A DNA stretch of 64,000 nt. It comes from Obrimoposthia wandeli (Eukaryota). The stretch spans positions 62,001-126,000 of the forward strand of contig CDROCS010000004.1 of NCBI GenBank assembly GCA_977020255.1, read 5' to 3'. This document shows, piece by piece, positions 1-29,300 of this stretch; positions within the stretch are counted from its first letter, which is position 1, and each line of letters starts with the position of its first letter. The notes under the pieces were generated by a model that saw only the letters and a list, made by a program, of their open reading frames with translations, made no database searches and was not told the DNA's origin. The translations under genes and the position numbers were made by a program.

Positions 1-3000
1 ATTTTTGGTAACAACTGTTTTCTTAAATTAACGTTTTTACATTCCACAAAGAATGAATCGGTATCACCGGCAACTATATTAATTGAACAATTGAATAAAT
101 TACGATATATTTGTAAATCATGATACTGAAGAGTATACATTCGTAATTTGCTAAGGTCTAGTACAGCTTGGCCTATATAATTTGGTCGATCGAGACAAAT
201 AAAATCTTTTCTTAATAAAACAGCTATTAAATTATCATGAATTTCAATTGTTCGTTGAAACATAGGTTTGCTAGTATATGTAATTAATTTTGTAGAACTA
301 GTGCAGATGCGAAGATTCAATCGTTTCTTAACATTTTCAACGGTCTTTCCATACAAACTAACATTTTTAAGTTTATAAAAATCTTTGTCACATTTATTCG
401 TTGCTTGTGATCTCATTTCTGAATTATATTCTATATATTCTGCGAATATCTTAGCCTGAGAGAATTTTATTGCTCGATGAATAATTGTTACCACTGCTCC
501 TAAACTAACATACATCTGCAATAGTCTCCAATGAATAACATAATGACTTTTTGGCGAATGCGTCATTAAAAGTTTTTCAACTTTTTTACCAGGTGGACAT
601 TTCTTTTCTGGAGCTATAGGAAGATCATCTAAAAAGTCATGAAGGTTTTCTGGTATTACCAAGTCTACTTCCATAAAATAACCATATTCAATATGTTTCA
701 TGTTCACATTTTTCATTTCATGCAATATTTCGTTTAATTTTATATCATCAAGAATCCATTCAAAATCTCCTTTTGGTAAAGGTTGATCAAGAGCCCATCC
801 ATATAAATTATTAACATCTATATATAAAAGACTTGTTTCTTCATCAGCGACTACATGATGCTTATTGACAAATGTCATTCCTCCTCGTATACCCGAAGAA
901 ATCATGTTGTACATTTCAGGATCCTGCATCAGTTCAACCTTATGTTTTAACATTTTTAGAGCACTTGCCCAACTCAACCCAGGAATGCTAAAAAGTTAAG
1001 TGGTTCTAAACCATCTTCACTGAGAGCTTTTCTTCTGAATGTTTGAAATACGTCAGCTAATAAATATACGTCAGTCTTTAAGTAAACTAACATATAATCC
1101 AACATATTTCTACAATTGGTTATTTTCCAAACATCTTGTGCTTTTTGATATTCAGTGTCTGTGATTTTATCATTCCATTTTACTGGTAAACTTAACTTAT
1201 TCTGGAGGACATTTAATGATGTAGCAAAATCATATGGGAATATTCCTTTGCCATCAATAAGTTTAGATTGAAAAACTGATCTTGTTAACCGAATAGTTGG
1301 TAATTTACCGGCTAAATTTTCTAAAGATGATTGCAAAAATTGCAAAGAATCTATAAATCTCAGAGTTATTTGACCTAATCTTACAATCATGGCTTGAAAC
1401 TTTTCCGTTGATTGTGGTATAATATTTATATCCCAGTCAGTAAATTTATTCAATGCATGTTTTAAAATATGATGTAAATCATAACCTCTGAGATTATGAA
1501 ACACAATAGGTAAAGTTGGACGAAGTTTTCTTGATAAATTACATTCATTGCATGCAGGACCTAGATACTTGCCAGTAAAGTGATCATGATCTTTAACATA
1601 TTTTTCAGATGATTCGCGACATAAATAACATTCATCGGCATTGCTAAATGTATGAATCTCTGCATTTGTTAAGGGTATCATTACGTTTTTAAGAGCATCT
1701 AAATATCATGGCAAAACCTTTTCTTTAGCCAAGTTCTCTATTGACTGAAGAAATTTAACTATGCAGTCATCACCAACATTATATTGATACTGGGTTTCAA
1801 TTTCATCTGTACTCATAAATAACATACCAGATGCGACAGGCATATGCTTTTGATGATAACTCTCATCTGGTACTAATACAGATTCAAAATCAGCGTAAAC
1901 GACATATTTCGGTGATATTGTTTTTGACCAATCGTTGAATTTAACGTACTTATTCTTAGGCATAGTATACATTGTAGTGCTTTCTTGATTATAGTCACAT
2001 AAAACTTTATGCTTTTCTAATGACAAATCGGTTTTGAAACCATGTAAACACTTTTCACACCATTTTCTGCTAATTCTAGTCGTTCCAGTTCGAATATTTA
2101 ATAGCCGGTTAAGACAAGTTATTCCTATATAATGAAACCGTTCCTTGGATTCTAGTAACAATAAATTAACTATAGTTCCTTCCTTTATTTTTGATTTGTA
2201 TGCAATATCAATATAAGGATTCTTGATAACATCAGTTTTTGATTCTTTTTACTTATCTCGTTGAATATGAATACATTTATTATTATACCAGGATTTTGCA
2301 TTTCAAATTTTGATATATTTGATATTTTCATAGGCATGTCTTCGGAATTATATACAAAATCATTTAAAAATCTTTCATATTGGCTTGGTCTATTTCTATG
2401 TACTTCTATTTCATTATATTTAAGTATTGACAATATTGCATAAATAAAGCAAAGATTATCAGAGTTTTGAATATTGACGACTGCTTTAGATTTTGTAAGA
2501 GAATTTGGTGATTTAATATATGAATGACCTGACAATGCACAAATTTGACTATATTTAGTAGCAATAAATGTATATTCAAGTATATTCATCAATTTCCAAC
2601 CACTACCCTTTTCTGAATATTCTTCAACTTTATTTTCCATTGTATCTTCCATTTCTGAAATTATAGCATGTGAAAAAATCATTGCTCGATGCGAAGCATA
2701 CCATTCTTTAGTTTCTCCATCATTCTTTTCAAACCTCATTCTAATGATGTATTGTATCTTTGCTTTTCCCATTAATTGCACTATTCTTTCTAGTTCGTTT
2801 AATAATGAAACTGGAACCTTAAGACTTACAAGATTGAGATGATCTACTTTCATGGATATCATTGAATAACTATTTTCTAACGATGTTTTAGTATGTATAT
2901 TGTCATTTATTTTACGTTTTCGTGACGGAGTAGGAGCTGAAATTACTATGTTTGATGGTACATTAATTATATCAGTTCTTTTGCTTAAAGCCGGTACTTT

Positions 3001-3165
3001 AAATAATTTTTTCTTACTAACATTTTCATATTCTTTTAAATGACTAACATGTCGACTATAAAATAAGTTGTAATCAATATTTTCAGTGCTTAAACATTGT
3101 GGACATATGAAATAATTTATCCTTTTGTATGAATAACCATAATATTTTTCATTATATCATGACAT
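1..3165 (-). pseudogene. Protein-primed family B DNA polymerase (pPolB) with vOTU-like and endonuclease VII-like domains, disrupted
   Basis: Joining ORFs 2185-2862, 1706-2161 and 974-1681 with manual translation of 1-990 gives: NIQNSDNLCF...HY (vOTU-like), YADFES (ExoI), CYLC..DHDHFTGKYLGPACNECN (EndoVII-like), FHNLRGYD (ExoII), YLKTDV (ExoIII), YIDVNNLYG (motif A), KLKNVSLYGK (motif B) and GDTDS (motif C, about 61-75). Breaks: 1-nt homopolymer losses near 2245 and 990, and an in-frame TGA at 1706-1708 (VLP*Y). The 5' boundary is approximate. Confidence 0.92.
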
Positions 3166-3329
3166 TCTTGAGGATTAAAATGTGTATCCGAATAACAAAT
3201 ATTTGAATAAGTTTTACATATACTCATCTGATGATATGATTGATTTGATTGGACTTGAGATATTGGCTGATTTGTATACTGAATAAAAAAAATATATATA
3301 AATACAATAATTTAATTATTTTACTTACA

Positions 3330-3884
3330 ATGTTAACAAATATTAATTATAAAGGAATTTGCTTAGATGATGTATCCAAATTAAAATTTCGAACACGACC
3401 AGAACAATACGTTTATAAAGCCAAAGATTATACAATACTTATTTTTAGAAATAAGAAATGCAGGATTATGGGATGTAAGGTACCTATTAAAAATATTTCT
3501 TACCCTTTAAGAATAAATATACTTGGTATTCAATCAATTACGATATGTGAAAATTTAGATCAAAGTATCAATCTATTTAAATTATGGAATGTATTACGTA
3601 ATGCATGTTCATTTGACCCTGAGGTTTTCCCAGGCTTAAGATTAAATATTTTCAATCCATTGTGTGTAAATATTTTCACATCTGGAAAGGTCGTAATTTT
3701 AGGTCTTAGAAATTTAGATTTTCAAAATCAAGTTAACGATATCATGACATACATTAAAAAAAATTATATAAATACGAAACAATTTCTAATTAATTATGGT
3801 GAAACAAAGATTTCGGATATTCAAGAAGATGGAAGAAGTCTCATCTGGAGGATTCATACAGCGACCGAATATTTTGATGTTTAA
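3330..3884 (+). CDS. TATA-binding-protein-like protein (element 1)
   Basis: FDPEVFPGL...VNIFTSGKVVILG matches the TBP repeat-2 signature YEPELFPGL...LLIFxSGKVVxTG. TILIFRNKKCRIMG matches repeat 1. Likely ATG at 3330. The C-terminal tail may be read-through caused by an 8-A run near 3756-3763. Confidence 0.85.
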   Translation: MLTNINYKGICLDDVSKLKFRTRPEQYVYKAKDYTILIFRNKKCRIMGCKVPIKNISYPLRINILGIQSITICENLDQSINLFKLWNVLRNACSFDPEVFPGLRLNIFNPLCVNIFTSGKVVILGLRNLDFQNQVNDIMTYIKKNYINTKQFLINYGETKISDIQEDGRSLIWRIHTATEYFDV

Positions 3885-3966
3885 TAAATATTTAATAAAA
3901 TGTTGTTATTGTTATAAACATGTACTTATTCTGATATATTTATTTTATATTAATATTTATATATAA
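3796..3966 (+). CDS. Small 56-aa ORF with hydrophobic C-terminus
   Basis: Manual translation MVKQRFRIFKK...HVLILIYLFYINIYI*. Its TAA overlaps the ATPase ATG (TAATG). Positionally equivalent to the 90-aa ORF of element 2. Confidence 0.35.
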   Translation: MVKQRFRIFKKMEEVSSGGFIQRPNILMFNKYLIKCCYCYKHVLILIYLFYINIYI

Positions 3967-4613
3967 TGTTATTAACAAACAATTCGACTTTTCAAGTAGT
4001 AGGACCAAGTGGTAGTGGAAAAACTTTATTTGTTTGTAAATTATTAAATTCAAAAATGTTTAAAAATAAATTTAATAAAATATATTGGCATCAAGGTGGT
4101 GACGGAGAAGCTGGTTTAACAAACCAAGAATTTAATAAAATAAAAAACATTAAGATTATTAACGGTTTTGATGAAAATTGGAAGACAAGACTCGTAAAAG
4201 GTGATGTAATTGTTATTGATGACTTATATCAAGAGGCTAACAAAGAATCTGATTTTAATGATTTATTTACAAAAATTGCAAGACATAGAGAAGTTACTGT
4301 AATTTTTATAACCCAAAATTTATTTCATCAAGGAGGAAATCATCGTACTCGTAATCTTAATGTACATTATTTGATTTTATTCAAAAATCCTAGAGATCAG
4401 ACAGTGATAGATTTTATTGCTCGTCAAGCATTTCCTCATAACAAGAGTTATTTAATTGATGCGTTTCATGATGCTACATCTTTACCTCATGGTTATTTAT
4501 TTTTAAATTTTACTCAATCATGTCCTGATGATTTAAGAATTGTTACTGATATATTTAACCGTAATGGTATTACAGTCTATAAACAAATAAATAATAATAA
4601 TGTTTTAAAATAA
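3966..4613 (+). CDS. A32/FtsK-like genome-packaging ATPase
   Basis: Walker A GPSGSGKT, Walker B VIVIDD, downstream RH..vt.ifitQ and KNPRD motifs; intact 215 aa. Confidence 0.93.
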   Translation: MLLTNNSTFQVVGPSGSGKTLFVCKLLNSKMFKNKFNKIYWHQGGDGEAGLTNQEFNKIKNIKIINGFDENWKTRLVKGDVIVIDDLYQEANKESDFNDLFTKIARHREVTVIFITQNLFHQGGNHRTRNLNVHYLILFKNPRDQTVIDFIARQAFPHNKSYLIDAFHDATSLPHGYLFLNFTQSCPDDLRIVTDIFNRNGITVYKQINNNNVLK

Positions 4614-4614
4614 A

Positions 4615-5028
4615 ATGAATTTTAAAAAGAGTATTCTTAAACATAGTAAAAGGACAGATAAAGATGAAGTTAAAAAATTAATAAATACTGTATTATATGA
4701 TCGTAATAATATTGAATTTTCAAAAAGTTTACCTTATTTTAAAACCTTAATTGACGTACCAAAAACGAATAAAATGAAAATGTTGAAATCATTTCCAATT
4801 TATGTAGTTGATGATTTAATAAAAATTTTAAATAAAATAATTTATGGTAAAATTAAACCTGATGATAATATTTTAAAATATAAAAATTCATTAATAAATT
4901 TAGCAAATTCACATGGTAAAATTAATAAAAGAAACATTATTTATAATCAAAATGGCGGATTCATATTGGCCCTACTGCCCGCTATAGCATCAGTAATAGC
5001 TAGTGTTATATCTTCAAGATGGGGATAG
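4615..5028 (+). CDS. Basic virion core protein precursor (pVII-like)
   Basis: Lys-rich, with a QNGG^F adenain-type cleavage motif followed by a hydrophobic tail (ILALLPAIASVIASVI). Homolog at 24824-25153. Confidence 0.7.
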   Translation: MNFKKSILKHSKRTDKDEVKKLINTVLYDRNNIEFSKSLPYFKTLIDVPKTNKMKMLKSFPIYVVDDLIKILNKIIYGKIKPDDNILKYKNSLINLANSHGKINKRNIIYNQNGGFILALLPAIASVIASVISSRWG

Positions 5029-5189
5029 TTGTCTTAATAACGAAAATTATAATAATATTAAATAATTACATTCTTTCGTTTTATACAAACATATAAACAG
5101 ATTAAAAATATATTTAACTTTTATAATAATGGGGATAAACAATACAAAGTTGTCTAACTTATTTATAAATTTTAATTCTTCATGCTGCA

Positions 5190-6215
5190 ATGGAAAAGAT
5201 TTGGAACAATCCAGAAGATCCAGACGGTTATACAGGGTTAGAAAAATTGACAAAAAGAGTCAAACAATCAAAAACAAACACACAAAAATGGTTAAGAAAT
5301 GAATTATCATATAGTCTGAATAAACCTTTAAGACGTAAATTCCCTACTAGATCATATAAAACTAATGGTATTAATTCGTTATGGCAGATGGATTTAATGG
5401 AAATGATTCCTTATTCTTCAGTAAATAATGGATTCAAGTATATTTTAACTTGTATTGATGTATTTAGTCGTTTTGCAAGGACAGTTGGTGTTAAATCAAA
5501 ATCAGGTATTGATTTATTACATGCAATAGAATCTTTAATTGTTGATGATGTACCAGTAAATATCCAAACCGATGAAGGTAAAGAATTTTTTAATTCACAT
5601 GTTAAGAAATTATTTAAAACTGAAAATATCAATCATTATTCAGTATATTCTCAATATAAAGCTGCAGTAGTTGAAAGATTTAATAGAACGTTAAGAGAAC
5701 GGTTAAAGAAATATTTTACTAAACAAGGTAATAAGAAATGGGTGAATGTATTACCAAAAATTATTTATGCTTATAATAATTCTAAACATAGAGGTTTAGA
5801 TGGTTTAAAACCTGTAGATGTAAATAATAAAAATGAATTTGATATTTTGTTGAAACAAAATCTAAAAGAAAAGAAAGTTAAATCTAAATATAAAATTGAT
5901 GATTATGTTCGAATATCAAAAATAAGTACAAGTCCATTTATTAAAAATTTTAATCAAAATTGGAGTGATGAGGTTTTTCAAATTCATGATATTAATTATA
6001 AACAAAATCCAATAATGTATATTTTAAAAGATATTGATAACGTCATCATCAAAGGAAAATTTTATAAACAAGAGTTACAATTAATTGATAAACCTAAACT
6101 ATATCGAATACAAGAAATTTTAGAAACTAAAGGTCGTGGTAAGAATAAACAATATTACGTAAAGTGGCACGGATACTCTGAACCTTCTTGGATATTTGCT
6201 TCTCAAATTGAATAA
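5190..6215 (+). CDS. Retroviral-like (RVE/DDE) integrase with C-terminal chromodomain
   Basis: WQMDL, IQTDEGKEF and VERFNRTL supply the D-D-E triad; the C-terminus YRIQEIL...YYVKWHGY...SW is chromodomain-like; intact 341 aa. Confidence 0.95.
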   Translation: MEKIWNNPEDPDGYTGLEKLTKRVKQSKTNTQKWLRNELSYSLNKPLRRKFPTRSYKTNGINSLWQMDLMEMIPYSSVNNGFKYILTCIDVFSRFARTVGVKSKSGIDLLHAIESLIVDDVPVNIQTDEGKEFFNSHVKKLFKTENINHYSVYSQYKAAVVERFNRTLRERLKKYFTKQGNKKWVNVLPKIIYAYNNSKHRGLDGLKPVDVNNKNEFDILLKQNLKEKKVKSKYKIDDYVRISKISTSPFIKNFNQNWSDEVFQIHDINYKQNPIMYILKDIDNVIIKGKFYKQELQLIDKPKLYRIQEILETKGRGKNKQYYVKWHGYSEPSWIFASQIE

Positions 6216-7228
6216 TGTCAAAATATATTATTTTACCTAGTAATAGTTGTCCAAGTACTCAACCTAACAATACAGCCAATCAATTTACTGTAGATTGGGA
6301 AAACTCTCTAAATTTAGATGGTGAATGGGAGGTTGCCTTGACTGAATTAGTATTTAATTATACTCCTTTAACAATACAAACTAATTCAAAAATACTTTAT
6401 AAAACGGAAAAGATAGAAATGAAAACTTTCGATGTATCTTTTGCAATTTTAAATGGATTAATTTTTAATAATTTAAATACTGTTTTCAATTTCAAAATTA
6501 CAAAGGATCAAAAATTAGAAATAAGTACAATTAACAGTATTCATCGAATGTTGTTAAAATTCGAAACTTTAGAAGAATCAAAAATTATAGGTTTTAATGA
6601 AATACAAAAAATTTCTAGTCATGTTATAACAAGTGATGAAATTGTTGACATAAATAAAAATATTCATGCTAAAATGAGAATTACAATTTAATCTTTAGCT
6701 GAATATGAATACGAAATAAAATTTAATCAAAATTATTTGATACAAGATAGTTCTTCATTATGTAATATTATAGCCAGTAAATGTAATGAAATTTTTAAAA
6801 GCTGTAATATAGATTCAAACGGATTATTTGATATTTTAATAAAGAAAAATGTAAAATCAGTTTTATTTGACGAAAAACTTGCATCTTTATTAGGTTTAAA
6901 TAATGTTTTCTTTGAGAAACGAATTAAAGGTTTTCAAAAACCAACACTTTCTAGCTCATATAATCAAATGTATATTTATACTAGTTTAACAGATTCTGTC
7001 TTAGTAGGATCTGATTATGTTCCACTGTTAAAGTCTATTTGGTTAAAATCATTAAAATATCGATATGGAGATGTAGTAAATGTTAAAATTGATAATCCAA
7101 TGTACTTGAAAATGAGAGATTCAAGTATTAATAGAATCGAGGTAAATATACGTGATGATTCTGGTAATTTAATTCCATTTTCATATGGAGCAAAAACTAG
7201 TTTAACTCTTCATTTACGTAAAGTATAA
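6215..7228 (+). pseudogene. Minor capsid (penton-like) protein, one in-frame stop
   Basis: N-terminus LPSNS...PNNTANQF...L.G.WEVAL.E and C-terminus YIYTS...LVG...PLL...IEV.IRD..G...F.....LHLR. ORFs 6215-6691 and 6737-7228 are in the same frame, separated by TAA at 6689-6691. Confidence 0.88.
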
Positions 7229-7271
7229 ACAATATAAATATATTTAAAATATAAATATATATATATATAAA

Positions 7272-7675
7272 ATGAATACATCAATTATAAAATTTTATAG
7301 CAAAAGTCAACAGGGCGGTGAACTTCCCTATTTCATTGGTAAACAATATGGATCTGGTTGGTATCAAACTATTTCTAGATTAGCTATTCCATTTATTAAA
7401 AAAGTTGGTTTATCAGCAGCTACAAGTGCTGCAAATGTAATTGGTGAAACGGTAGGAACTGCGTTAACAAACCCAAAACAATAATTTCATCTCTCAAAGA
7501 AAATACAATCAAAGAAGTCAAAACTTTGATTCCAAAATTAAAAAATAATGCTGTTGAGAGTTTAAATAAAGTCGCAAATTGTGTTGAACAAAATGGAAAG
7601 GGTCTTAAACGTAAAAGAAATAATTTAAATAGTATAAACAAACGTCTTAAAGGTACTATTTTCCAAAATGACTAG
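7272..7675 (+). pseudogene. Conserved small Polinton virion protein (QxGG / QYGSG motifs, amphipathic helix), frameshifted
   Basis: [18 protein letters not shown]... A frameshift at an A run near 7476 continues as TIISSLKEN...KRLKGTIFQND*, collinear with the intact homolog at 23341-23718 (ends GTIFAK). Confidence 0.75.
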
Positions 7676-8888
7676 TATAAAATCTGAATTGTGTATTTTC
7701 GATAGACCACTACCTCAAGTAGTGATTGAAAATTCAAGTTTTGAAGAAATATTTCCAATCAATTCAATTACTGGAAAAAATTTAAATGACATAGAATTTA
7801 ATATTCATGCATCTGAAGAAGATTATCTGGATTTGAATGATACTTTGTTAAATATTAAATTAAAAGTTGTAAATGAAGATGGTACTGATTTAATGAAAGA
7901 TAGCGATGTAACTCCAGAGAATTACATGTTTCAAACTTTGTTTAGAGATGTTATTCTAACACTTAATAATGTAAAGGTTGAAGGAGGAAATGGAACGTAT
8001 ACTCATAAGGCTATATTCGATACTCTTTTGAATTTTAGTAGTGATACCAAGTATACTAACCTTGAATGTTCCGGGTATGATGATGATGCAGAAAATCGTA
8101 AACAATGGATTAGTGAATCTAAAATATTTTCATTGTGTAATTCAATTAGATTAGATTTCTTTGATCAACCAAAATATTTGATTCCAGGGATTAATGTTCA
8201 TTTGAGATTTATGAGAAATCAGCATAATTTTTCGCTCTATTCAGAAACTTCAAAACCAATTATTCAAATTCTAGATGCTAGATTGTATGTTAGAAGAGTA
8301 AAAGTTGATTCTTCAGTAATGATTGGACATCAGTTAGGTTTGCAAAGTCAGAATGCAGTTTACCCAATTAGAAAAACTCAGTTAGTAACATATTCAATAC
8401 CTCAGGGTTCTTTGGAACTTAATAAAGATCAAATATTCGGAGACTATCGTTTACCCAAGTTCATTTTGATTGCTTTCAAAGATACACCTCAGGGTGGTAA
8501 GGAATACAAAGTTAAATCTTCTACGTTCAATACATTTAATGTTTCAACAATATCATTAGCTAGAAATACAGATTATCGAGAAACTTATAATCTAGATAAT
8601 AACAATTTTTCATTAGCATATATGCAGTCAATTATTCGAAATATGAATATTTTAGATAAAAACGTGAATAATGGTATCAGATTTTCTGATTTTAAATCAG
8701 GAAGTTCGATTTTCACTTTCCTATTAGCACCAGATTTTGATATAAACACTACTCAAGTGCCTAAAACTGGTAATTTAAGACTTGAAATTAGATTTAATTC
8801 TCCTTTGACCGTTCCAACAAGTGTTTTGATTTACGGAATATTTGATTCCGAAATTCAGATTACGAAAAATAAAACTGTGATTGTATGA
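7668..8888 (+). CDS. Major capsid protein (double jelly-roll, hexon-like)
   Basis: KSELCIFD.P.PQ...E N-terminus, [26 protein letters not shown] and GNLRLEIRF..PL motifs typical of Polinton MCP; intact 406 aa. Confidence 0.92.
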   Translation: MTSIKSELCIFDRPLPQVVIENSSFEEIFPINSITGKNLNDIEFNIHASEEDYLDLNDTLLNIKLKVVNEDGTDLMKDSDVTPENYMFQTLFRDVILTLNNVKVEGGNGTYTHKAIFDTLLNFSSDTKYTNLECSGYDDDAENRKQWISESKIFSLCNSIRLDFFDQPKYLIPGINVHLRFMRNQHNFSLYSETSKPIIQILDARLYVRRVKVDSSVMIGHQLGLQSQNAVYPIRKTQLVTYSIPQGSLELNKDQIFGDYRLPKFILIAFKDTPQGGKEYKVKSSTFNTFNVSTISLARNTDYRETYNLDNNNFSLAYMQSIIRNMNILDKNVNNGIRFSDFKSGSSIFTFLLAPDFDINTTQVPKTGNLRLEIRFNSPLTVPTSVLIYGIFDSEIQITKNKTVIV

Positions 8889-9261
8889 AGTAAGCTTATT
8901 GTATATTATATTCTTTATTTAAATTAGTACTTTAGAAATTCATAAATCCGGAAAAATATTATTGAATAACAAATTTAATGGAGTATATTCATTGGATAAA
9001 ATTCCATCATTAAAACCCGGAGGTTACATTATCAATACTCATACTTCAAATCTACCAGGCGAACATTGGATAGCAATATTCGTTGACAGATTCGAGATTC
9101 GAGTGTTTGATCCTTTTGGATTCTATTATCCTGCAAAGTTGGTGTCTACACTTGAAAAAGAAAACATTCCAGTCTACTATAATCGAGTTAAATGTCAGAA
9201 TCCATTAACTAAAAACTGCAGACCTCTGAGTCTTTTATCGTTGAAACTTCAACACAAATAA
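8885..9261 (+). CDS. Adenain-like cysteine protease, spliced join(8885-8889,8928-9261)
   Basis: [14 protein letters not shown] (His), FDPFG (Asp), Q.P.T.NC (Gln/Cys). A 38-bp GTAAGC...AATTAG intron supplies the ATG that overlaps the MCP stop (ATGA). Spliced ORF 112 aa. Confidence 0.85.
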
Positions 9262-9312
9262 TTTTAAGTATAAACAAATATATCATTATAGTATTTCATT
9301 TTATTTTTTCAA

Positions 9313-9765
9313 ATGGCTTTTATTGATTTAGAATGTTTTATTGATAATAATGGAGAATATATTCCAAAGGAATTATGTATAATGTATGTGAATGATATGA
9401 CTTGTCCATTTCATTACGTGTTTAAAAATCAAATACCATGGAGTAGTTTATCATTTACAGTTAAAAGAAAAAATCTATATTTGATAAATCATCATCATCA
9501 GTTATCCTGGTTTGAAGGTGAAAGCTCTGATATTCATATTGATGATGTTGAAACAATATTCTATGTTATGGATTCTATTGATGGAAAGAAAATTAATTTA
9601 GTGAAACGAATGTTTCCAAATTTGAGAATTGTGAATTATAATAAAAGTTTCAAAAATTTAAAGAAAATGCCAAAAAATATTCGATGTCCGTTTAGAAAAC
9701 ACGGAAAACATTGTGCTTATTTGAAATGTTTTTCTCTATGTATTGATTATGTAAATTGTATATAA
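9313..9765 (+). CDS. DEDD/DnaQ-like exonuclease-fold protein with C-terminal Cys/His cluster
   Basis: ExoI-like FIDLECF, IPKEL, HHQLSW..G and terminal CPFRKHGKHCAYLKC. Resembles a small ORF family I recognise from invertebrate Polintons; the fold assignment is by eye. Confidence 0.55.
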   Translation: MAFIDLECFIDNNGEYIPKELCIMYVNDMTCPFHYVFKNQIPWSSLSFTVKRKNLYLINHHHQLSWFEGESSDIHIDDVETIFYVMDSIDGKKINLVKRMFPNLRIVNYNKSFKNLKKMPKNIRCPFRKHGKHCAYLKCFSLCIDYVNCI

Positions 9766-9870
9766 ATATATTTATTAAGGATATTTTATTTTAATATATA
9801 ATTTATGTTATTTAAATAAATTTTACCATAATTCTTTAGATGTGTAAGCCTGGAAAAAAAAAACTTTGAT

Positions 9871-10025
9871 CTAAATTTTCACATAGAATAGTATGTGTGT
9901 GATTACGTAATACATTCTTAACTGATAAGAGTGAACTTTAGTATAAATTTCACATAAAATATTGTGTGTATGATTACGTCATACATTCTTAACTGATAAG
10001 AGTGAACTTTATCCTAAATTTTCAT
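9871..10025. repeat. About 71-bp tandem duplication in the subterminal region of element 1
   Basis: GATTACGT(A/C)ATACATTCTTAACTGATAAGAGTGAACTTTA occurs at about 9901 and 9972. Confidence 0.9.
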
Positions 10026-10027
10026 TA

Positions 10028-10373
10028 TGGACTAGATCACAAAAAGAAGGGTGGAGACTAAGCCACTTGATCCTTTGAATTAGTAGTTAGCCAAAAAGAA
10101 GGGTGGAGACTAGACCACAAGAGAAGGGTGGAGACTAAGCCACTTGACCCTTTCATAGTGGTATATCATAAAAAGAAGGGTGGAGACTAAGCCACTTGAC
10201 CCTTTCATAGTGGTATATCACAAAAAAAAGAAGGGTGGAGACTAAGCCACTTGACCCTTTCATAGTGATATATCACAAAAAGAAGGGTGGAGACTAAGCC
10301 ACTTGACCCTTTGAATTATGGACGACCATAGATTATAGCCAAAAGAAGGGTGGAGTCTAGATCACTTGACCCC
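10028..10373 (+). repeat. Seven copies of an approximately 30-bp core (period about 50 bp) in the terminal region
   Basis: AGAAGGGTGGAGACTAAGCCACTTGACCC(T) starts near 10041, 10093 (truncated), 10121, 10170, 10225, 10277 and 10341. Confidence 0.92.
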
Positions 10374-10412
10374 CTCACCCTCTCCCTCCCCTCCCCCTCC
10401 CCGCCTCCTCCT

Positions 10413-10541
10413 CCCTAAAGGGTGTCACACCATAAGGATGTCTTGCCACACCATACGGGTATATGTTGCCTCACCGGAGGTGAGGCAACATATACCCGTA
10501 TGGTGTGGCAAGACATCCTTATGGTGTGACACCCTTTAGGG
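10413..10541. repeat. Perfect palindrome, 63-bp arms with 3-nt loop (GGA)
   Basis: 10413-10475 is the exact reverse complement of 10479-10541, checked base by base. Confidence 0.97.
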
Positions 10542-11307
10542 GGGGTCAAGTGGTCTAGACTCCATCCTTCTACCTACTTGTTTACGTGAAATAAATATAT
10601 TGGAAAATCTTCTTTGAATACCTTTAAATAAATTTTGAATAATATATTTTAAATTTGTATTTATTTGCAAAATTACCTCGTGTATTCTTTTTTCTAAAAT
10701 TTTTCCATCAACATAATCTGACATTAATTACAAAACATTCTCTATGATATTAACCCATTACTTCGGGGTTTAATTTTTTCAAAAGTTCTTCAAAATTTTG
10801 CATATTATAGCTATTTGTGGATACCCTTAAATATACTAAACACAAAATTATTATATTTACACTATTCAGCATAAAATTAATAATACTATATCGAAAGAGT
10901 AAATTGAAAATGAGTTCTTGAAAGCTACTGATGAATCGAGAGTTATTGTATCTCTAGCTTGTGAGTTCTTAAAGGTATTGGACTTGTGTGAATGTGACTG
11001 TATGCTGCTGCTATTTATATGTGGATCCGTTTTTATTGTTCTCTCTTTCTGCCACGTTGCATCAAGTTTCTCAACACTGTCACAGTAAAAATGGTGATGA
11101 CTTTTACAGTTATCAAGGTCACCTGATGTTAATTAACTCACTTATTGAAAAAATTAAACAACCTTTTTTCGTATTTATTATTTCCCCTAATTTAATTTCA
11201 ATTTATTGACAATTATACTATTTAAAATTAATTGAATTAGTTGTGGTACAACAAGTGTACAATAATCACATAAATTTATGTTACATTAAACCATCTTTAA
11301 TCTGCAG

Positions 11308-17300: not shown

Positions 17301-20300
17301 CGCTTTGAGATATTATTGTTCTTATTCGTAATACTTTCAAATTTATTTTGTAACAGTTAGGTATTCCTGTTTTTGCCAAACAAAGAGATGGTGTTTTCAA
17401 TTTTTCTCAAGTAAACTGAATATCGGGTATTTATTGTTTGGGTTTGAATGTGTAAATGAATTAAAAAATAAATGTTACTCCTTACAATCTTTATATTGTA
17501 TGGGAGGATATTTTTTATTTGAAAGTATTAGTTTGTTTTCCTTTGAAACTTTGTGTGGAACTTAAGATTATTCGAAATTAATTTAACACCGTTATTTATC
17601 ATTGCAGTAGCAGTGACGGGTAAAGGATTTTATTTCATCACCTGTTTCACAGTTCACATATTTTCATGATTTTTTATTAAAATTATCTACATAAAAATCT
17701 CTCTTCACAATCAAAATTTTGGTGAAAAATGTTTAACATATTAATATTATTGGGACGCTGTAAAAGGAAATTGCCGTTTGTATACATTACGCCGTCCACG
17801 GAGCCTAGAAAGAGAAGAAGGCGAAATATATATGTTATATAGTATTATCATTATTTAAATGTTAGTTGGTGGAAAAGTTTATTTATTAAGGGAGAGCACA
17901 GGCAGATTTAAAATGACATTTGTATTTCATTGACTTCCAATTAGTATTTTAAACTGGATTAATACACTTAGAAATTAATTATTGTTGTTAATTTTATCAT
18001 TAGTAAGTAGGTGGATGTGTCCGGTCTAATCCACACCCCCTCCACCCCCCTGTCCTTTAAAACCGAGCATGTGTGTGGAGTGAAATTTCGTGTAGGTGTG
18101 TGGAGTGAAATTTCGTATATGTGTGTCTCCATCCCGCCCAAAGGGGGAAGGAAGGGGGGGGGGGTACCCCCCACCATATTTGTTAAACTTTTACCATGAA
18201 TCTCAAAAGTGGTTAGAGAAGACCACGAGAATCCATATTGACCCCGGCGACTTTTCGCAGACGAGATTTCAAATATTACTACTATTTTTAAGAAAGATTT
18301 TAGATTAATAAATTACTACATGTTAAATATCTATGTCAGTTTTAGAATTTAGAGGAGAAAAATCGGTCAGATCTATATAATTTAGAGGAGCAAAAACAAA
18401 ATACGAGACAAAATTATTTTTCAAAATATTTATTAAACATAAAACAACATATTGGCTTCACTCAAAGTCCAGAGAGGCTGCATTTTCCCGTCATTAGCAA
18501 AATATCCATTCAGACGTATTGAGATATTCCATAGTTCTTCATCTAGAATTGGAGCAATCAAATATCCCAGATCATCTTTAAAATCCAGACTGGGATCAGT
18601 TTCAAGCTCGAAACAATTTCCTTCATATACATAATCAGAAATGTAAAAGCCCAAAATATTTTTCAGTTGATCAAAATCAGTTGTTGTTAAAATTTCGATG
18701 AGATATTTTTTCTCCACTTTTGATATTTTCACAGGATTCATAATTCGTATAATTTGATGCCTCTTTAATATATTACATAGTTTTCCTTTTGAAATTCTTT
18801 CTGGATAATAAAAATTTGCTACACATCTCATATCCATTCTAAAATAAGGAAACTGATTAAAAACAATGTTTATAAAAAAATACACATAAGATACAAATAA
18901 GATACAAATAAAACTGATTATTAAATGAAAGAAACATAGTAAAACCGATTACAATTTATTACACACAAAAGTTAAAACATAGAAATATGAGCACGTTCAA
19001 TTTTCCACATAGGCAACTTTGTCCCCATTTCATCTTTCTTGTAACCATAAAGTCGAATTGTTAGAGTCCATTGCTTCTTTTTCGGAAACGCATCAATATC
19101 AACATATCTTCCATAGTCATCTAGAAATGCTTCATCGGCTCCTCGGATATAAAATTCGTTCTTATTGAAAGTAAAATTTGGAACTGCCTTTTCTATTTTC
19201 TGTTTAAGATATTGAAAATCAGGTTTTTGAATACCTGATAGATAGTAGCTGAACTTTCTTCTTTCAATTGTCACAGGATTTACTAAAGCAATCAGTTTAG
19301 CCTTCTTCAAGAATCTGACTTTGTATTTGAAATATTGTTTCACTTCTTCATACATATCCTTATCCGATTCTTCAAACATTTCTTCGTCATCGCTTAATAC
19401 CCGTTGGCTATCGTCCATCGTTGATAATTGTCTTTGATATGAATGCATTTACTGTGATTTGTCCTCCAATGGCGCATTCTTTTATACTAATTTCTAACAA
19501 AGACAAGAATCTCATTGGTTAATATAACTAAAGCATTGAATTTGATTGGACTAAATCTATATTAAAAATCAAAATTTATTGGAAGAAATATATCATCCAA
19601 TTATAATAGGTTTGCAAGATAATTACAAGAAACGTGCAATAAAAAGCAGGTTCAGACATATATAAAGAAGATTTTACAGAATACAATTTCAGTCTAATGA
19701 AACTCGTAAATATAAATTATAAAGGTAGAACAGAAGATGATGTTTCGTACTTACCATTCAATGAATGGAAGCCGAGACAATATGTAGAAAAGTTTGACAA
19801 TTTCACAGTTGTTATGTTTCCTACAGGTTAGTTTTTTATTTTATTTTCATATTGAATTCTTTAGGAAATTGTCGTGTTATGGGATGCAAAATACCAATGC
19901 TTGGGTTCAATTTACCATTTGGAATTCAAATCACTGCAATACAATCAATCACGATTTCGGCTAATCTCGGGAAACAGATAAATATTTTTAAAACTGCAGA
20001 GAAAATGAAAGAAGAATGCATGTTTGAACCAGAAATTTTTCCTGCTCTCAGTTATTTGAAGTTTAAACCGCTATGTGTAAATATATTTTCCAGTGGTAAA
20101 GTTATGATATTGGGATTGAAAAATTTTGATTATCCAGACATAGTTGATTTGATTTTAGAAAATATATCTTATTACATCTTGTTATCTTTTCTATAAACAA
20201 ACCCGTTTAAACTTATTGTTTTGAATGAATAATACTATAAATAGAGACAATGAAGTGGATCGGCTTGCCGATGAAATTTTTTCTGGAAAAATTAGGGTTA

Positions 20301-23300
20301 AAGAAATTTTATCAGAATTAAAAAATAATGATATAACAAGAGATAACATTGAAATATTGGTTAGATCTCACGTTATTCGAGAATTTAGAAATCGTACACA
20401 AATAAATAAAATTATAGCCAAATATTCATTAATTAATTTTTGTATTTCATCTACAATAGCTCTAACATTGTACATTTCAATAAGGAAACTTCTATGATAA
20501 TATAAACAATATTAAAAATGAAAGAGTATATGCAATGGAGCTAAATAATAATGCTGTATTTCAAATAGTTGGCCCAAGTGGAAGTGGAAAGACACATTTC
20601 GTCTGTAAATTGTTGCAAAATGAATCTCTTTTCAAATCTAGTTTCAAAAATATTTATTGGCATCATGGTGGAGGAGGGGAAAGCGGGTTAACCAAAACAG
20701 AAGTTTGCAAGTTGAAGGGTATAAAATTTATTGAAGGATTTGATGCAAATTGGTGTGAAAGATTGAAAAAAGAAGATGTAATAATAATTGATGATTTGTA
20801 TGAGGAGGCTAACAAGGAATCGGACTTTAATAATTTATTTACAAAGATTGCAAGACATCGTGAAGTAACAGTTATATTTATCACTCAAAATCTGTTTCAC
20901 CAAGGAGGTCACCATAGAACAAGAAATCTTAATGTACATTACTTAGTTTTATTTAAAAATCCTAGATATCAAACAGTTGTTGATTTTGTGGCCAGACAGG
21001 CATTTTAGAATGTAGGAATGTTAGTTTAAATAATCAATTATTACCAGCAATGTTTAGGGACAACTTACTAGATACCCATAAATATCCCGCTAACCATCCT
21101 CTACACTCTATGAGTTTAAAGGACATTATCGGGAAATTTAAGGATGAAAGCGAGGGACAGGTTTCGTATGATGATTGTATTTTCCTACGCCCTAAATGCT
21201 ACAGTTTACAATGTAAACTTTACATGCATCTAATAATACATGTTCAATGAGAGCAAAGGGTGTGGGAAGAAACAATCTTACACATGAGGCCTACCGGAAA
21301 GTTTATGATACTGGGTGTATTGAAAACGTTGAGCAAAGTAGATTTATTTCAAGAGCCCATCAACTGTATTCCCATAAATCAACCAAAATCGCTTTGAGTA
21401 GTAATGACGACAAGCGCTTTTGGGTAGAAAAGAACGCTAGCCTGGCTTATGGACACTTCAGAATTTAAACGGTTTTCATTTTTTGATTTTTTTAGTTTAG
21501 TTTTTTAAAATTTTAGATCCCTATGGCACCTAGACTCTAACTTATTTGTTATTTCAATACGTTTTTTTAGGATGGACCTTATCTTTGCTGACATATCTCA
21601 TTGTGATGTTGTGATTAATAAATGTATTAAAAACAATTGTCTTATGTCTTTTATTATTTTACCCTTATATTTTTAGAGATTTAAAAAATAATTCAAAATA
21701 AAACATTTAAATTTTTTATTTTTATAACACACTAATTGTTTTGCAACGATAACCATTAAATACATAAATGTCCACAGTTTCTCGTCGCAGGATCCTGATA
21801 TTGTATCTTGTTGTAAAATACTCTTCTTCGTCCTTTTTGAATAGTTGAAACAAGTTTGTGTGGATAATACATTGCAAGTGGATCAAATACATGTATTGTT
21901 CACTCTCTAACATAAATAGCTATCCAATGTTCTCCTGGTAAATTCGAAGTATGAGTATTGATAATGTAACCTCCAGATTGAAAAAATGGAATCATATCAA
22001 TAGGATAAACTCCATTGAATTTATCACCCAGGACCTTCTCTGCTGATTCTTTTACTTGTTTTGAACTAAATAAAAATTAATAAATATAAATTTAAAATAT
22101 GTCTTACTCCATTCTATAATATGACAGTTCTGTTTTTATTGATTTGTATTTCCGAATCAAATACTCCGTAAATAAGCACCGTAGTAGGATGTGTTAAAGC
22201 TGCATTGAACTTAATTTCTAGTCGTAAATTTTCATCCTTTGGTAGTTGGCATTGGTTTATATCAAAGTCTGGTGCCAAAACGAATGTGAAGAACGGGCAG
22301 CTACTTTTAAACTCAGTGAAAGAAATACCATTGTTTATATTTTTATCTAGTTGACCCAAATTTCCGAATAATAGATTGGGTATAAGCCAAAGCATAAGCG
22401 TTACCTTCGAAATCTGTTTTATATGTTTCACGATAATCAGTATTTCTTGAAAGTGTCACTGAACCTACACTAAGATTGTCAAATTGAGTTGCATCTGTCG
22501 TATAATTTCCTAGAAACTTTGCAGTTTTTTGAAAAGAAATTAAAATGAATTTCGGTAATCTTACATCACCAAAAATTTGATCCTTATTAAAAGCTTGTGT
22601 ACTCGTACCTAAAGAATAAGATATAAGTTTAGTTTCTCTAATAGGATAACAAGCATTGTTTTTTTCCATTCCTATATTATGTGCCATTAAAACTGATTGC
22701 TCGGTTATAACTCTTCGAACATACAATTTTGCATTCAAAATATCAAGTCTAGGTTTTAGAATGTTCGTGCTTATCAAAGAAAAATTCCATTTATTACGTT
22801 TCAAACGAAAATGTACATTAACACCGGGAATTAAATATTTCGGTTGTTCAAAGAAATTCAATCTCAAAGACCCACACATTTCGTAAGCTTTAGAACCTGC
22901 AATCCATTCTTTGCGAGTTGCAACAGTTTTACCATAACCAATGGTTGCCAAATTAGTATTTTGAGTATCAGTACTATAATTCAAAAGACTTTCAATCAAA
23001 GCTTTATGAGCATAGAAAGAATTTCCACCTTCAATTTTGACATTATTAAGAGTAACAATTTCATCATTAAATAAAGAATTAAAGAGATAATTTACAGGTG
23101 TTACATCTGCATTTTCATCTAAATTAGTACCATCCCGATTTAATACTTTTATTTGAACATAAAGCAAAGTATCATTCAAATCTAAATACTCGCTATTGGA
23201 ACCATTAATATTAAATTCTAAATCGGTTAAAGTGGTTCCTGAAACTGAGTTAACTAGGAATATTTCTTCAAAGGAAGCATTATCTACAACTACTTGTGGA

Positions 23301-26300
23301 AGCGGTTTATCAAAAATACATAATTCAGTTTTGGCGCAACTCATTTTGCAAATATTGTTCCTTCAACATTCTTACGTTTGTTTATATTAATTTTTAGCTT
23401 CTTTTTACTTTTAAATCCACTACCTCCTTGGCTTTTATTTGATTTACGTTTTCTAATCAAATTAGCAACTTCAGGTAAAACATTATCAAGTTCATCAAGC
23501 GCATGCTTCTTAAAAGTTGGTATTAGTTTGTTGTCCTTAGATGAAAGGTAATCCTTTCCTAATTTTGATATAAATCGCCCGAGTCTCTTTAAAAGAGGAA
23601 AGGCAAATCTACCTAATGTTCTAAGCCAGCCAGATCCGTATTGTTTACCAACAAAATATGGTAATTTTCCACCTTGTTGGCTTTGACTATAAGCTTCAAT
23701 TATTGCTGGATTCGCCATTTTGTTTTCTTAAATGTATTGTTAAACTTGTCTTGGCCACGTACGTGAAATCTATTAGTTGTCCAGAATCATCTCTAATATA
23801 TACTTCAATATTGTTTATAGAAAAGAGAGAAACTGGAAGATACATTGGTTGATCTATACACATACCGACAGCGTCCCCATCTCTAGTTTCATTTTTAGAA
23901 ATCCATATTGTTCTCAAAAGTGGAACTCGCTGTCCTCCTACAAGCGTTGGTTCTATTCTGCTCCAATTCTGATCAAAGTTTTTAATAAATGGAGTAGAGC
24001 TAATTTTCGAAATTCGAACATATTCGTTTTTCTTATATTTTGCTTTTTTTAATTTAATCTTTTTTATTCCTGTTCATCCAAATGTCCATAGAGTTTTTAT
24101 TAGTAACATCAACAGGTCTCATTCCCTTGAGACCTCTATGTTCAGAGTGATTATATGCATGTATTATTTTAGGTAAAACTTGGATCCATTTTTTATTTCC
24201 TTCTTTTGTGAAATACTTTTTTATTCGATCTCTTAGAGTACGATTAAATCTTTCTACTACTGCTGCTTTGTATTGTGAAAACACAGAGTAGTGATTTATA
24301 TTATTTTGTTTAAATAATGATTGAACTTGCTTATTATAAAATTATTTTCCTAAATCAGTTTGCACTTTTTGTGGAATGTCCTCTTTTAATATTTCTTTAA
24401 TGGCTTCAAGCATAGCTATTGAAGACTTTGCTTTAACTGGAATTGCACGAGTAAACCTGCTAAATACATCAATACATTTTAAAATATATCGATATCCCTT
24501 ATTAATGGAAGAATATGGGATCATCTCCATCGAATCCATTTGCCATAAATTATTAGGACCGCTGGTTTTGTAAGCTCTAGTTGGAAACCTTCTTCTCATC
24601 GGCTTGTTCAGACTGTAGGCTAACTGGTCGCTCAGCCATTTCTGCGTTTTCTTGTAATTTTGTTTTGTTCTTTTTGCTAATTTTGAAACTCCTGTGTAGC
24701 CAATTGGATCTTTTGGATTGAACCATATCTTCTCCATTACAACAATTTGAATAGAAAGAAAATTTAAGTTTAGGCAAAGAAGGGCTAGCACCCATATCTT
24801 TAGCTGATTTTAGAAATAATAGTTTATGAACGTGTCGCAGCTATAATACTACTGATAATTGAAGCAACAACTGGAATAACAGCCCCTATGAAACCACCAT
24901 TCTGTTTAAGAATAATATTTCGTTTCCTTTTTTTACTTTTTACATTAGCAATATCTAGAAGAGTTTTTCTATATTTCTTTAATATATTTTTCCGATTTCC
25001 AACTTTTACTCGACCCAAAACTATATTATACAAAACTTCCAATAAATCATCTACAACAAAGGATGGAAATGCTTTAAGAATAATCATTCTCTTATTAGAA
25101 GAAGCTTTGACTAAAGTTTTAAAATAGGGTATGCTTCTTTGTATTTTCTTCATTTTAATAAAAAAGGTTTAATTTAAATATTGTTTATATTCGAAGCCAT
25201 TAAAGTTTTTTTTTATTTTTAACTACAGATTTGATTAATTTTTTCACTTCTTTTTTCTTAATGATTCTTTTTTTTGATTTCTTAGATTTTACTTTACGTT
25301 TTACTATCAACTTTGTAAAAGGCATTGGGAATTTATTTTTTATAATTGTTCTCTATTTCTTTATAAACAGTTACTCCCTTAGAATTAAATATGTCTGTTA
25401 AAACACGTAAATCATCTGGGCAAGCTTGTGTAAAGTCAATAAATATATACCCATGTGCTTGTTTAGCAGCATCATGGAATGAATCAACTAGAAAGTTCTT
25501 ATTTTGAGGAAATGCCTGTCTGGCCACAAAATCAACAACTGTTTGATCTCTAGGATTTTTAAATAAAACTAAGTAATGTACATTAAGATTTCTTGTTTAA
25601 TACATTTATTAATCACAACATCACAATGAGATATGTCAGCAAAGATAAGGTCCATCCTAAAAAAACGTATTGAAATAACAAATAAGTTAGAGTCTAGGTG
25701 CCATAGGGATCTAAAATTTTAAAAAACTAAACTAAAAAAATCAAAAAATGAAAACCGTTTAAATTCTGAAGTGTCCATAAGCCAGGCTAGCGTTCTTTTC
25801 TACCCAAAAGCGCTTGTCGTCATTACTACTCAAAGCGATTTTGGTTGATTTATGGGAATACAGTTGATGGGCTCTTGAAATAAATCTACTTTGCTCAACG
25901 TTTTCAATACACCCAGTATCATAAACTTTCCGGTAGGCCTCATGTGTAAGATTGTTTCTTCCCACACCCTTTGCTCTCATTGAACATGTATTATTAGATG
26001 CATGTAAAGTTTACATTGTAAACTGTAGCATTTAGGGCGTAGGAAAATACAATCATCATACGAAACCTGTCCCTCGCTTTCATCCTTAAATTTCCCGATA
26101 ATGTCCTTTAAACTCATAGAGTGTAGAGGATGGTTAGCGGGATATTTATGGGTATCTAGTAAGTTGTCCCTAAACATTGCTGGTAATAATTGATTATTTA
26201 AACTAACATTCCTACATTCTAAAATGCCTGTCTGGCCACAAAATCAACAACTGTTTGATATCTAGGATTTTTAAATAAAACTAAGTAATGTACATTAAGA

Positions 26301-29300
26301 TTTCTTGTTCTATGGTGACCTCCTTGGTGAAACAGATTTTGAGTGATAAATATAACTGTTACTTCACGATGTCTTGCAATCTTTGTAAATAAATTATTAA
26401 AGTCCGATTCCTTGTTAGCCTCCTCATACAAATCATCAATTATTATTACATCTTCTTTTTTTCAATCTTTCACACCAATTTGCATCAAATCCTTCAATAA
26501 ATTTTATACCCTTCAACTTGCAAACTTCTGTTTTGGTTAACCCGCTTTCCCTCCTCCACCATGATGCCAATAAATATTTTTGAAACTAGATTTGAAAAGA
26601 GATTCATTTTGCAACAATTTACAGACGAAATGTGTCTTTCCACTTCCACTTGGGCCAACTATTTGAAATACAGCATTATTATTTAGCTCCATTGCATATA
26701 CTCTTTCATTTTTAATATTGTTTATATTATCATAGAAGTTTCCTTATTGAAATGTACAATGTTAGAGCTATTGTAGATGAAATACAAAAATTAATTAATG
26801 AATATTTGGCTATAATTTTATTTATTTGTGTACGATTTCTAAATTCTCGAATAACGTGAGATCTAACAAATATTTCAATGTTATCTCTTGTTATATCATT
26901 ATTTTTTAATTCTGATAAAATTTCTTTAACCCTAATTTTTCCAGAAAAAATTTCATCGGCAAGCCGATCCACTTCATTGTCTCTATTTATAGTATTATTC
27001 ATTCAAAACAATAAGTTTAAACGGGTTTGTTTATAGAAAAGATAACAAGATGTAATAAGATATATTTTCTAAAATCAAATCAACTATGTCTGGATAATCA
27101 AAATTTTTCAATCCCAATATCATAACTTTACCACTGGAAAATATATTTACACATAGCGGTTTAAACTTCAAATAACTGAGAGCAGGAAAAATTTCTGGTT
27201 CAAACATGCATTCTTCTTTCATTTTCTCTGCAGTTTTAAAAATATTTATCTGTTTCCCGAGATTAGCCGAAATCGTGATTGATTGTATTGCAGTGATTTG
27301 AATTCCAAATGGTAAATTGAACCCAAGCATTGGTATTTTGCATCCCATAACACGACAATTTCCTAAAGAATTCAATATAAAAATAAAATAAAAAACTAAC
27401 CTGTAGGAAAAATAACAACTGTGAAATTGTCAAACTTTTCTACATATTGTCTCGGCTTCCATTCATTGAATGGTAAGTACGAAACATCATCTTCTGTTCT
27501 ACCTTTATAATTTATATTTACGAGTTTCATTAGACTGAAATTGTATTCTGTAAAATCTTCTTTATATATGTCTGAACCTGCTTTTTTATTGCACGTTTCT
27601 TGTAATTATCTTGCAAACCTATTATAATTGGATGATATATTTCTTCCAATAAATTTTGATTTTTAATATAGATTTAGTCCAATCAAATTCAATGCTTTAG
27701 TTATATTAACCAATGAGATTCTTGTCTTTGTTAGAAATTAGTATAAAAGAATGCGCCATTGGAGGACAAATCACAGTAAATGCATTCATATCAAAGACAA
27801 TTATCAACGATGGACGATAGCCAACGGGTATTAAGCGATGACGAAGAAATGTTTGAAGAATCGGATAAGGATATGTATGAAGAAGTGAAACAATATTTCA
27901 AATACAAAGTCAGATTCTTGAAGAAGGCTCAACTGATTGCTTTAGTAAATCCTGTGACAATTGAAAGAAGAAAGTTCAGCTACTATCTATCAGGTATTCA
28001 AAAACCTGATTTTCAATATCTTAAACAGAAAATAGAAAAGGCAGTTCCAAATTTTACTTTCAATAAGAACGAATTTTATATCCGAGGAGCCGATGAAGCA
28101 TTTCTAGATGACTATGGAAGATATGTTGATATTGATGCGTTTCCGAAAAAGAAGCAATGGACTCTAACAATTCGACTTTATGGTTACAAGAAAGATGAAA
28201 TGGGGACAAAGTTGCCTATGTGGAAAATTGAACGTGCTCATATTTCTATGTTTTAACTTTTGTGTGTAATAAATTGTAATCGGTTTTACTATGTTTCTTT
28301 CATTTAATAATCAGTTTTATTTGTATCTTATTTGTATCTTATGTGTATTTTTTTATAAACATTGTTTTTAATCAGTTTCCTTATTTTAGAATGGATATGA
28401 GATGTGTAGCAAATTTTTATTATCCAAAAAGAATTTCAAAAAGAAAACTATGTAATATATTAATGAGGCATCAAATTATACGAATTATGAATCCTGTGAA
28501 AATATCAAAAGTGGAGAAAAAATATCTCATCGAAATTTTAACAACAACTGATTTTGATCAACTGAAAAATATTTTGGGCTTTTACATTCCTGATTATGTA
28601 TATGAAGGAAATTGTTTCGAGCTTGAAACTGATCCCAGTCTGGATTTTAAAGATGATCTAGGATATTTGATTGCTCCAATTCTAGATGAAGAACTATGGA
28701 ATATCTCAATACGTCTGAATGGATATTTTGCTGATGACGGGAAAATGCAGCCTCTCTGGACTTTGAGTGAAGCCAATATGTTGTTTTATGTTTAATAAAT
28801 ATTTTGAAAAATAATTTTGTCTCGTATTTTGTTTTTGCTCCTCTAAATTATATAGATCTGACCGATTTTTCTCCTCTAAATTCTAAAACTGACATAGATA
28901 TTTAACATGTAGTAATTTATTAATCTAAAATCTTTCTTAAAAATAGTAGTAATATTTGAAATCTCGTCTGCGAAAAGCCGCCGGGGTCAATATGGATTCT
29001 CGTGGTCTTCTCTAACCACTTTTGAGATTCATGGTAAAAGTTTAACAAATATGGTGGTGGGTAACCCCCTTCCTTCCCCCTTTGGGCGGGATGGAGACAC
29101 ACATACACAAAATTTCACTCCACACACCTACACGAAATTTCACTCCACACACATGCTCGGTTTTAAAGGACAGGGGGAGGGGGGTGTGGATTAGACCGGA
29201 CACATCCACCTACTTTAGTATATTTAAAAAATAATTAACACCGATTATATGATAGTAACTGACCTCTTAGGCGGGGTGCAACGATTTAATTTAAAAAAAA

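Follow-up and report, generated by a model that had tools for sequence, protein, structure and literature searches.

A probable conserved micro-intron in codon 2 of the maturation protease gene of animal Polinton elements

Two Polinton elements and their host gene

The window, meaning the whole 64-kb stretch of DNA that was analysed, is animal DNA in which a dynein heavy chain gene holds two Polinton/Maverick-type elements. The host gene encodes a DNAH5/8-like axonemal dynein heavy chain and runs on the plus strand from 11300 to 60700 with GC-rich exons; its protein matches, at 64–73%, are spread over many phyla. Element 1 occupies positions ~1–10580, with its left end beyond the window edge, while element 2 (~18000–29200) is located within a 17-kb intron of the dynein gene. 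Both copies are partly degraded.

Element 1 encodes a pPolB (PF03175, E 6.5e-15 on 977–1705 by Pfam) that is split over several ORFs in this copy, an rve integrase (PF00665, E 1e-9) with a chromodomain (PF00385, E 0.0025), a packaging ATPase of the A32 type (PF04665 Pox_A32, E 6e-6), and a TBP-like protein (PF00352, E 7e-12) whose intronless gene lies at 3330..3884 on the plus strand. Also on the plus strand are a probable minor capsid gene (6212–7228), which carries an in-frame stop at 6689–6691, and the major capsid protein gene (7668..8888), an open ORF of 406 aa. A Pfam search with this ORF gave no match. Its ESM Atlas feature matches reach 0.98, in clusters where a PF21738 DJR-like domain occurs on 15–30% of members, and its product is probably a double jelly-roll capsid protein, the Atlas lead being one of shared features rather than of an alignment or a predicted fold. 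Judged by its polymerase, integrase, ATPase, protease and probable capsid, the carrier is a Polinton. The same set is common to the animal Polinton/Maverick elements described as adintoviruses or Eupolintoviridae (PMC8097293, PMC8502044, bioRxiv 10.1101/2022.07.12.499685), which likewise have pPolB, rve integrase with chromodomain, ATPase, minor and major capsid genes, an adenain-like protease gene directly behind the major capsid gene, and insertion in host DNA.

Element 2 consists of a unique core flanked by gene-bearing inverted arms of ~3.6 kb (18005–21631 and 25596–29215) that are 96–100% alike. Its major capsid gene (22114..23344, minus strand) is broken into two frames, and this element showed no full-length polymerase frame.

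At the right end of element 1 (9874–10544), tandem repeats of 71 nt and ~54 nt lead into a hairpin of 135 nt at 10410–10544 that is nearly perfect. Summed contig depth over positions 7500–10580 of element 1 is ~150,000–850,000, while the adjacent exons of the host dynein gene have 0–10 in those runs. The figure is not a copy number, but it points towards very strong amplification of the family.

The codon-2 segment of the protease gene

The protease gene of element 1 begins where the capsid gene ends. Its first coding exon is an ATG plus two nucleotides (8885..8889, plus strand), and the ATG (8885–8887) shares bases with the capsid-gene TGA (8886–8888). A GT-AG segment of 38 nt and 84% AT (8890..8927) then divides codon 2 in phase 2, and an open, adenain-like second exon of 334 nt including the stop follows at 8928..9261. 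The match of the protein to PF00770 (E 0.0037) falls under the Pfam cut-off; the protease family profile matches adenovirus protease structures at E 2e-4 with the His and Cys regions aligned, and the residue adjoining the catalytic Cys of element 1 is atypical in the alignment. Element 2 has the same arrangement on the minus strand, with a first coding exon of ATG plus two nucleotides (22108..22112) one base past the capsid stop, a phase-2 GT-AG segment of 42 nt and 90% AT (22066..22107), and a second exon of 334 nt (21732..22065). Since this exon contains two internal stops, at codons 55 and 103, the protease of element 2 is a dead copy.

These coordinates bear out an earlier note on this DNA, made from the sequence alone, which described a codon-2 GT-AG segment of 38 and 42 nt at a shared position and phase in the two elements, and second exons of equal length. 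Its figure of 112 codons for both spliced products stands as a span, but the frame of element 2 is not open, and the overlap of ATG and capsid stop that it reported for element 1 is confined to that element. The arrangement is also rare. Counted over both strands of the 64 kb, the layout ATG-NN-GTRAG-(24–40 nt)-TAG occurs exactly twice, namely at the two protease starts. When the bases of the 80 nt preceding exon 2 were shuffled 220,000 times, 13 of the shuffles contained a slightly more relaxed form of this layout.

Relatives were collected by a metagenome scan that yielded 37 loci, 34 of them readable at the 5′ end of the protease gene and three unreadable (L012, L040, and L041). Scans of viral contigs gave nothing, or only four distant matches (L001–L004), which were left out of the analysis. 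The 13 closest loci (L005–L017) share 50–62% identity; as L012 starts inside the segment, 12 of these are readable. All 12 possess an ATG plus two nucleotides, then a GT donor and, past an AT-rich interior, a YAG acceptor in identical phase. The survey of related protease genes for a 5-nt first exon that the earlier note had proposed is thereby answered in the affirmative for close relatives, and its statement that the segment is kept across diverged elements extends well beyond two copies. In contrast, the 22 distant loci (L018–L039) are all contiguous at this point and collinear with the spliced form, beginning M-x-S/T in 21 cases and M-x-A in one. Exon 2 of the interrupted genes starts at residue 3 of intronless-type homologues (e.g., P0158, at 50% identity), and the split codon specifies Asn in 12 of 14 cases and Asp in the other two.

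In a tree of capsid C-termini, 11 intron-bearing and 18 intronless rows are separated by one change of state with 100/100 support. The tree is unrooted and retains 29 of 36 loci, L016 and loci with <100 open codons having been left out. Given that intronless is the widespread state, a single gain of the segment is likely, on an unrooted tree. A quick protease tree was poorly resolved, and the capsid tree was used in its place. In the protease tree, a few contiguous proteins (the P0013 cluster, P0034, P0158, P0042, and P0044) nest inside the intron group (group support 91); these may be either intron losses or cDNA contigs.

Database proteins reflect the same division. By a rough rule-based sorting, the N-terminus is of the read-through or late-start type in 34 of the 40 best homologues, compared with seven of those ranked 61–120, of which 47 are contiguous. 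The N-terminal extensions consist of F/Y/I/L/N/K to 71%, versus 42% in the protein body. A protease start that lies in a 5-nt coding exon is readily mis-annotated, and the 34 proteins just mentioned appear to be instances of this.

The segments have the character of introns. Across 14 copies (12 loci plus the two in the window), their lengths run from 37 to 43 nt and fall into mod-3 classes of 3/6/5, so length is not bound by frame, and removal of the segment restores collinearity with the intronless homologues. Among 11 non-redundant loci, the ATG, GT, and AG are invariant while interior columns mostly agree in 4–8 of 11; even between L006 and L007, which are nearly identical, the interior differs by 2 nt. 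Donors are close to consensus (GTAAG in 9/14, GTAAT in 3/14, and GTGAG in 2/14), acceptors are TAG (12/14) or CAG (2/14), and the segments are 80–93% AT, in line with a U-rich tract ahead of the acceptor. Branch-point-like motifs are present in seven of 11, which is at chance level (shuffle mean 5.3, p 0.25). A length of 37–43 nt is above the ~30 nt that is usually assumed as the floor for animal introns (PMC13644364) and below the shortest host intron counted here, at 50 nt. On these grounds, it is highly probable that the protease segment is a real spliceosomal (U2-type) intron. Trans-splicing of a leader with the ATG was also weighed and dismissed, because the phase-2 start of exon 2 and the conserved cis donor speak against it. 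The sequencing runs X1–X4 are DNA, since their contigs pass unbroken through host dynein introns, and no joint across 8890–8927 was found in these contigs among the 15 joints listed of 170, so that no intron-less DNA copy was seen among those 15.

Could the protease be made without splicing, whether by initiation downstream or at a non-AUG codon, or through frameshifting that yields a capsid–protease fusion? A fusion of this kind (“Hexain”) has been published as a hypothesis (bioRxiv 10.1101/2024.03.25.586562). Of the 14 intron loci, four have an in-frame Met ahead of the catalytic His and three an in-frame ATG located 5′ of exon 2. The earlier note had held that there is no proper start without splicing; this fits element 1, whose second exon contains no Met at all, but it is not strict among the relatives. 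Nevertheless, the other 10 of 14 loci lack any Met ahead of the catalytic His, and the frame relation of capsid to protease and the length of the spacer take all phases. With a stop-to-ATG offset that ranges from +1 to −7, the loci share no non-splicing route, which argues against a conserved frameshift fusion. Such routes would also leave the invariant ATG, GT, and AG unexplained, together with a mid-gene intron in the TBP-like gene (described below), and are hardly credible overall.

Further micro-introns are found elsewhere in these elements. The TBP-like gene of element 2 contains a 38-nt GT-AG segment in phase 1 (19827..19864, plus strand), with a copy in the inverted arm at ~27363–27400 on the minus strand, and its flanks match consecutive parts of the contiguous protein of element 1 in two different frames. 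At locus L016, the gene after the protease has a GT-AG segment of 43 nt by hand count (L016 3029–3071), which coincides with a break in the tblastn alignment. Alternative starts cannot account for the segments in these two genes, which therefore provide independent support for splicing. For comparison, five introns measured in the host dynein gene are 50, ~75, 77, 94, and ~155 nt long, all longer than the element introns. The 50-nt host intron lies at 45123–45172, and one GC-AG intron is located near 12613.

A promoter-like motif and the expression of the protease

The motif ATAAAC precedes the protease gene in both elements, lying within the capsid gene of element 1 at 8742..8747 (plus strand), 143 nt before the protease ATG, and in element 2 at 22255..22260 (minus strand), 148 nt before it. 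In the form ATAAA[C/T], it precedes the protease ATG in 36/36 loci, always within the capsid coding end, against a background in the capsid body of 0.0006–0.0015 per nt. Its distance to the ATG is −70 to −78 in 22/22 intronless loci, −31 to −46 in 12/12 intron loci, and −143/−148 in the window.

The motif is not confined to the protease. Element 1 has ATAAAC motifs at 3914, 4579, 5093, 5135, 6145, 7225, 7634, 8742, and 9270 on the plus strand and at 3416 on the minus strand, and nine of its 11 plus-strand matches to ATAAAC[A/G] are followed within 150 nt by the start of a gene. ATAAAC(A) precedes almost every gene in the window and in L006, L013, L014, L023, and L034, often within the coding end of the previous gene, and the looser ATAAA[C/T] is found ≤150 nt upstream of 59/59 genes picked. 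Two matches in L006 sit near convergent 3′ ends. A role as poly(A) signal was rejected: the motif lies ~70–80 nt before the capsid stop in intronless loci, which would place cleavage inside the coding region.

The motif is likely a TATA-like promoter element, and since the elements encode a TBP-like protein, it is a candidate element-specific TATA box, with the TBP-like protein of element 1 as its candidate reader. As it stands before the protease and the other genes alike and lies, in the intronless loci, too deep for a poly(A) signal, each gene would appear to have its own TATA-like promoter, and that of the protease is probably inside the capsid gene. For the window elements, a separate promoter is less certain because the motif is so far from the ATG. 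If a motif at −31 to −35 is spaced like a normal TATA box, the 5′ UTR comprises a few bases only. Relative to the protease ATG, the motif has shifted from ~−70 in the intronless loci (L018–L039) to ~−33 in the intron group (L005–L017), and 76–84 nt separate it from codon 3 in 11/14 intron and 22/22 intronless loci. This constancy is probably coincidental, since other genes of the intron group also have shorter distances from motif to ATG.

The spacing of the two genes could instead be read as that of a bicistronic mRNA, with the protease as second cistron of the capsid message, re-initiation at the adjacent ATG, and removal of the intron from the shared mRNA. The ATG lies ≤7 nt from the capsid stop in 13/13 measurable intron loci and overlaps the capsid end in 21/22 intronless loci, and the remoteness of the motif in both window elements would also fit. 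However, the motif lies upstream of the protease in every locus, as it does with other genes, the spacing from stop to ATG varies from +1 to −7, and tight gene packing is general in these elements. With what seems to be a promoter-like motif of its own, the protease does not have to be translated from the capsid mRNA as a downstream cistron, and re-initiation is considered quite improbable.

The explanation that best fits the observations, with a probability of roughly 0.65, is that the segment is an ordinary constitutive first intron of a protease mRNA started at its own TATA-like motif in the end of the capsid gene. Transcription would begin from this motif, and the host spliceosome would remove the codon-2 GT-AG segment constitutively as a cap-proximal first intron. 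Retention of the intron over time may reflect the difficulty of precise loss, or a benefit to the expression of a gene whose first exon is very short, rather than the timing of the protease. Lying immediately after the capsid stop, the intron would also not disturb the capsid coding sequence of any read-through mRNA.

The earlier note had proposed a different role, namely a splicing-dependent switch that limits or delays protease production. On this reading, regulated or inefficient splicing would leave a retained form with a two-residue ORF and hold the protease low or late relative to the capsid protein. Unspliced RNA would indeed read Met-Lys/Glu-stop in 14/14 loci, the lengths occupy a narrow band under the measured host introns, and the intron has been kept although the capsid proteins of intron-bearing loci are only ~47–54% identical to that of element 1. 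Because the protease introns are shorter than the five measured host introns, their splicing may be inefficient, and throttling is conceivable. A parallel exists in adenovirus, in which the protease gene follows hexon and is expressed from a separate mRNA that arises by alternative splicing (PMC7851563). On the other side, the stop is a by-product, as any phase-2 GTAA/GTGA donor carries it, and the splice sites look strong, with consensus-like donors. Neither an interior element nor the length is conserved, introns of the same size occur in the TBP-like gene and in another gene of the group, and the intron is absent from 22/22 distant loci and probably from some close ones. Given the donor-derived stop, the unconserved interior, and the intronless relatives, the switch is not supported; it is doubtful, and less likely than constitutive splicing. 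A related idea, in which the element runs an expression programme of its own, with the TBP-like protein reading ATAAAC and the sub-host-length intron acting as a splicing-rate throttle that keeps the protease scarce or late, is unlikely. If true, such a throttle would give Polintons their first described means of controlling virion maturation.

Comparison with known systems, and implications

Splicing of the protease mRNA would set these elements apart from animal Polintons with intronless core genes. In 134 intact vertebrate elements and in the C. plicata Maverick, the core genes are reported as intronless, with introns in cargo genes only (PMC8097293; bioRxiv 10.1101/2022.07.12.499685). Compared with the described animal Polintons, the elements examined here differ in the conserved codon-2 protease intron and in an element-encoded TBP-like protein, and they very likely carry a conserved, clade-specific micro-intron in a morphogenesis gene of a group whose core genes had been described as intron-free. 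Splicing of the protease goes unmentioned in the excerpts of PMC8502044, bioRxiv 10.1101/2023.08.22.554363, and PMC12220804, and a literature search, with Repbase, the 2006–2007 discovery papers, supplements, and subscription papers outside its scope, found nothing on the protease intron or the motif.

The nearest parallels are of three kinds. In adenovirus, the homologous protease gene (L3-23K) also lies behind the major capsid gene and is expressed via splicing, with a choice of alternative 3′ splice sites on a single long late transcript and with the ATG in the last exon (PMC7851563). In contrast, the intron here lies within codon 2, and the protease gene probably has its own promoter. Eupolintoviral elements of dinoflagellates also contain spliceosomal introns, which derive from introners and are young, repeated, and transposon-derived in their protist hosts (PMC12166617), whereas the protease intron is old, confined to a single site, diverged in its interior, and carried by animal elements.

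The third parallel is with start-codon-proximal first introns of eukaryotic genes, in which the first coding exon extends little beyond the ATG. The protease intron is distinguished from these by its phase-2 position in codon 2, its length below that of the measured host introns, and its abutment on the stop of the upstream gene.

A spliceosomal intron in a morphogenesis gene, if confirmed, would imply nuclear transcription of the Pol II type and continued selection on protease expression, and such selection bears on whether the elements form virions. The splice junction would offer an RNA marker of late-gene expression that is proof against DNA. Where Polinton copies are screened as “intact” by uninterrupted ORFs, the group with a 5-nt-exon protease may be scored as degraded. 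The best side lead is the element-wide motif, which together with the TBP-like gene provides a testable model of Polinton transcription.

One additional segment of element 1 was observed on the minus strand at 3279–3328. It is a 50-nt, AT-rich GT-AG stretch that lies upstream of the polymerase frames, ~90 nt past the sole minus-strand ATAAAC motif, and is possibly an intron of the polymerase 5′ region.
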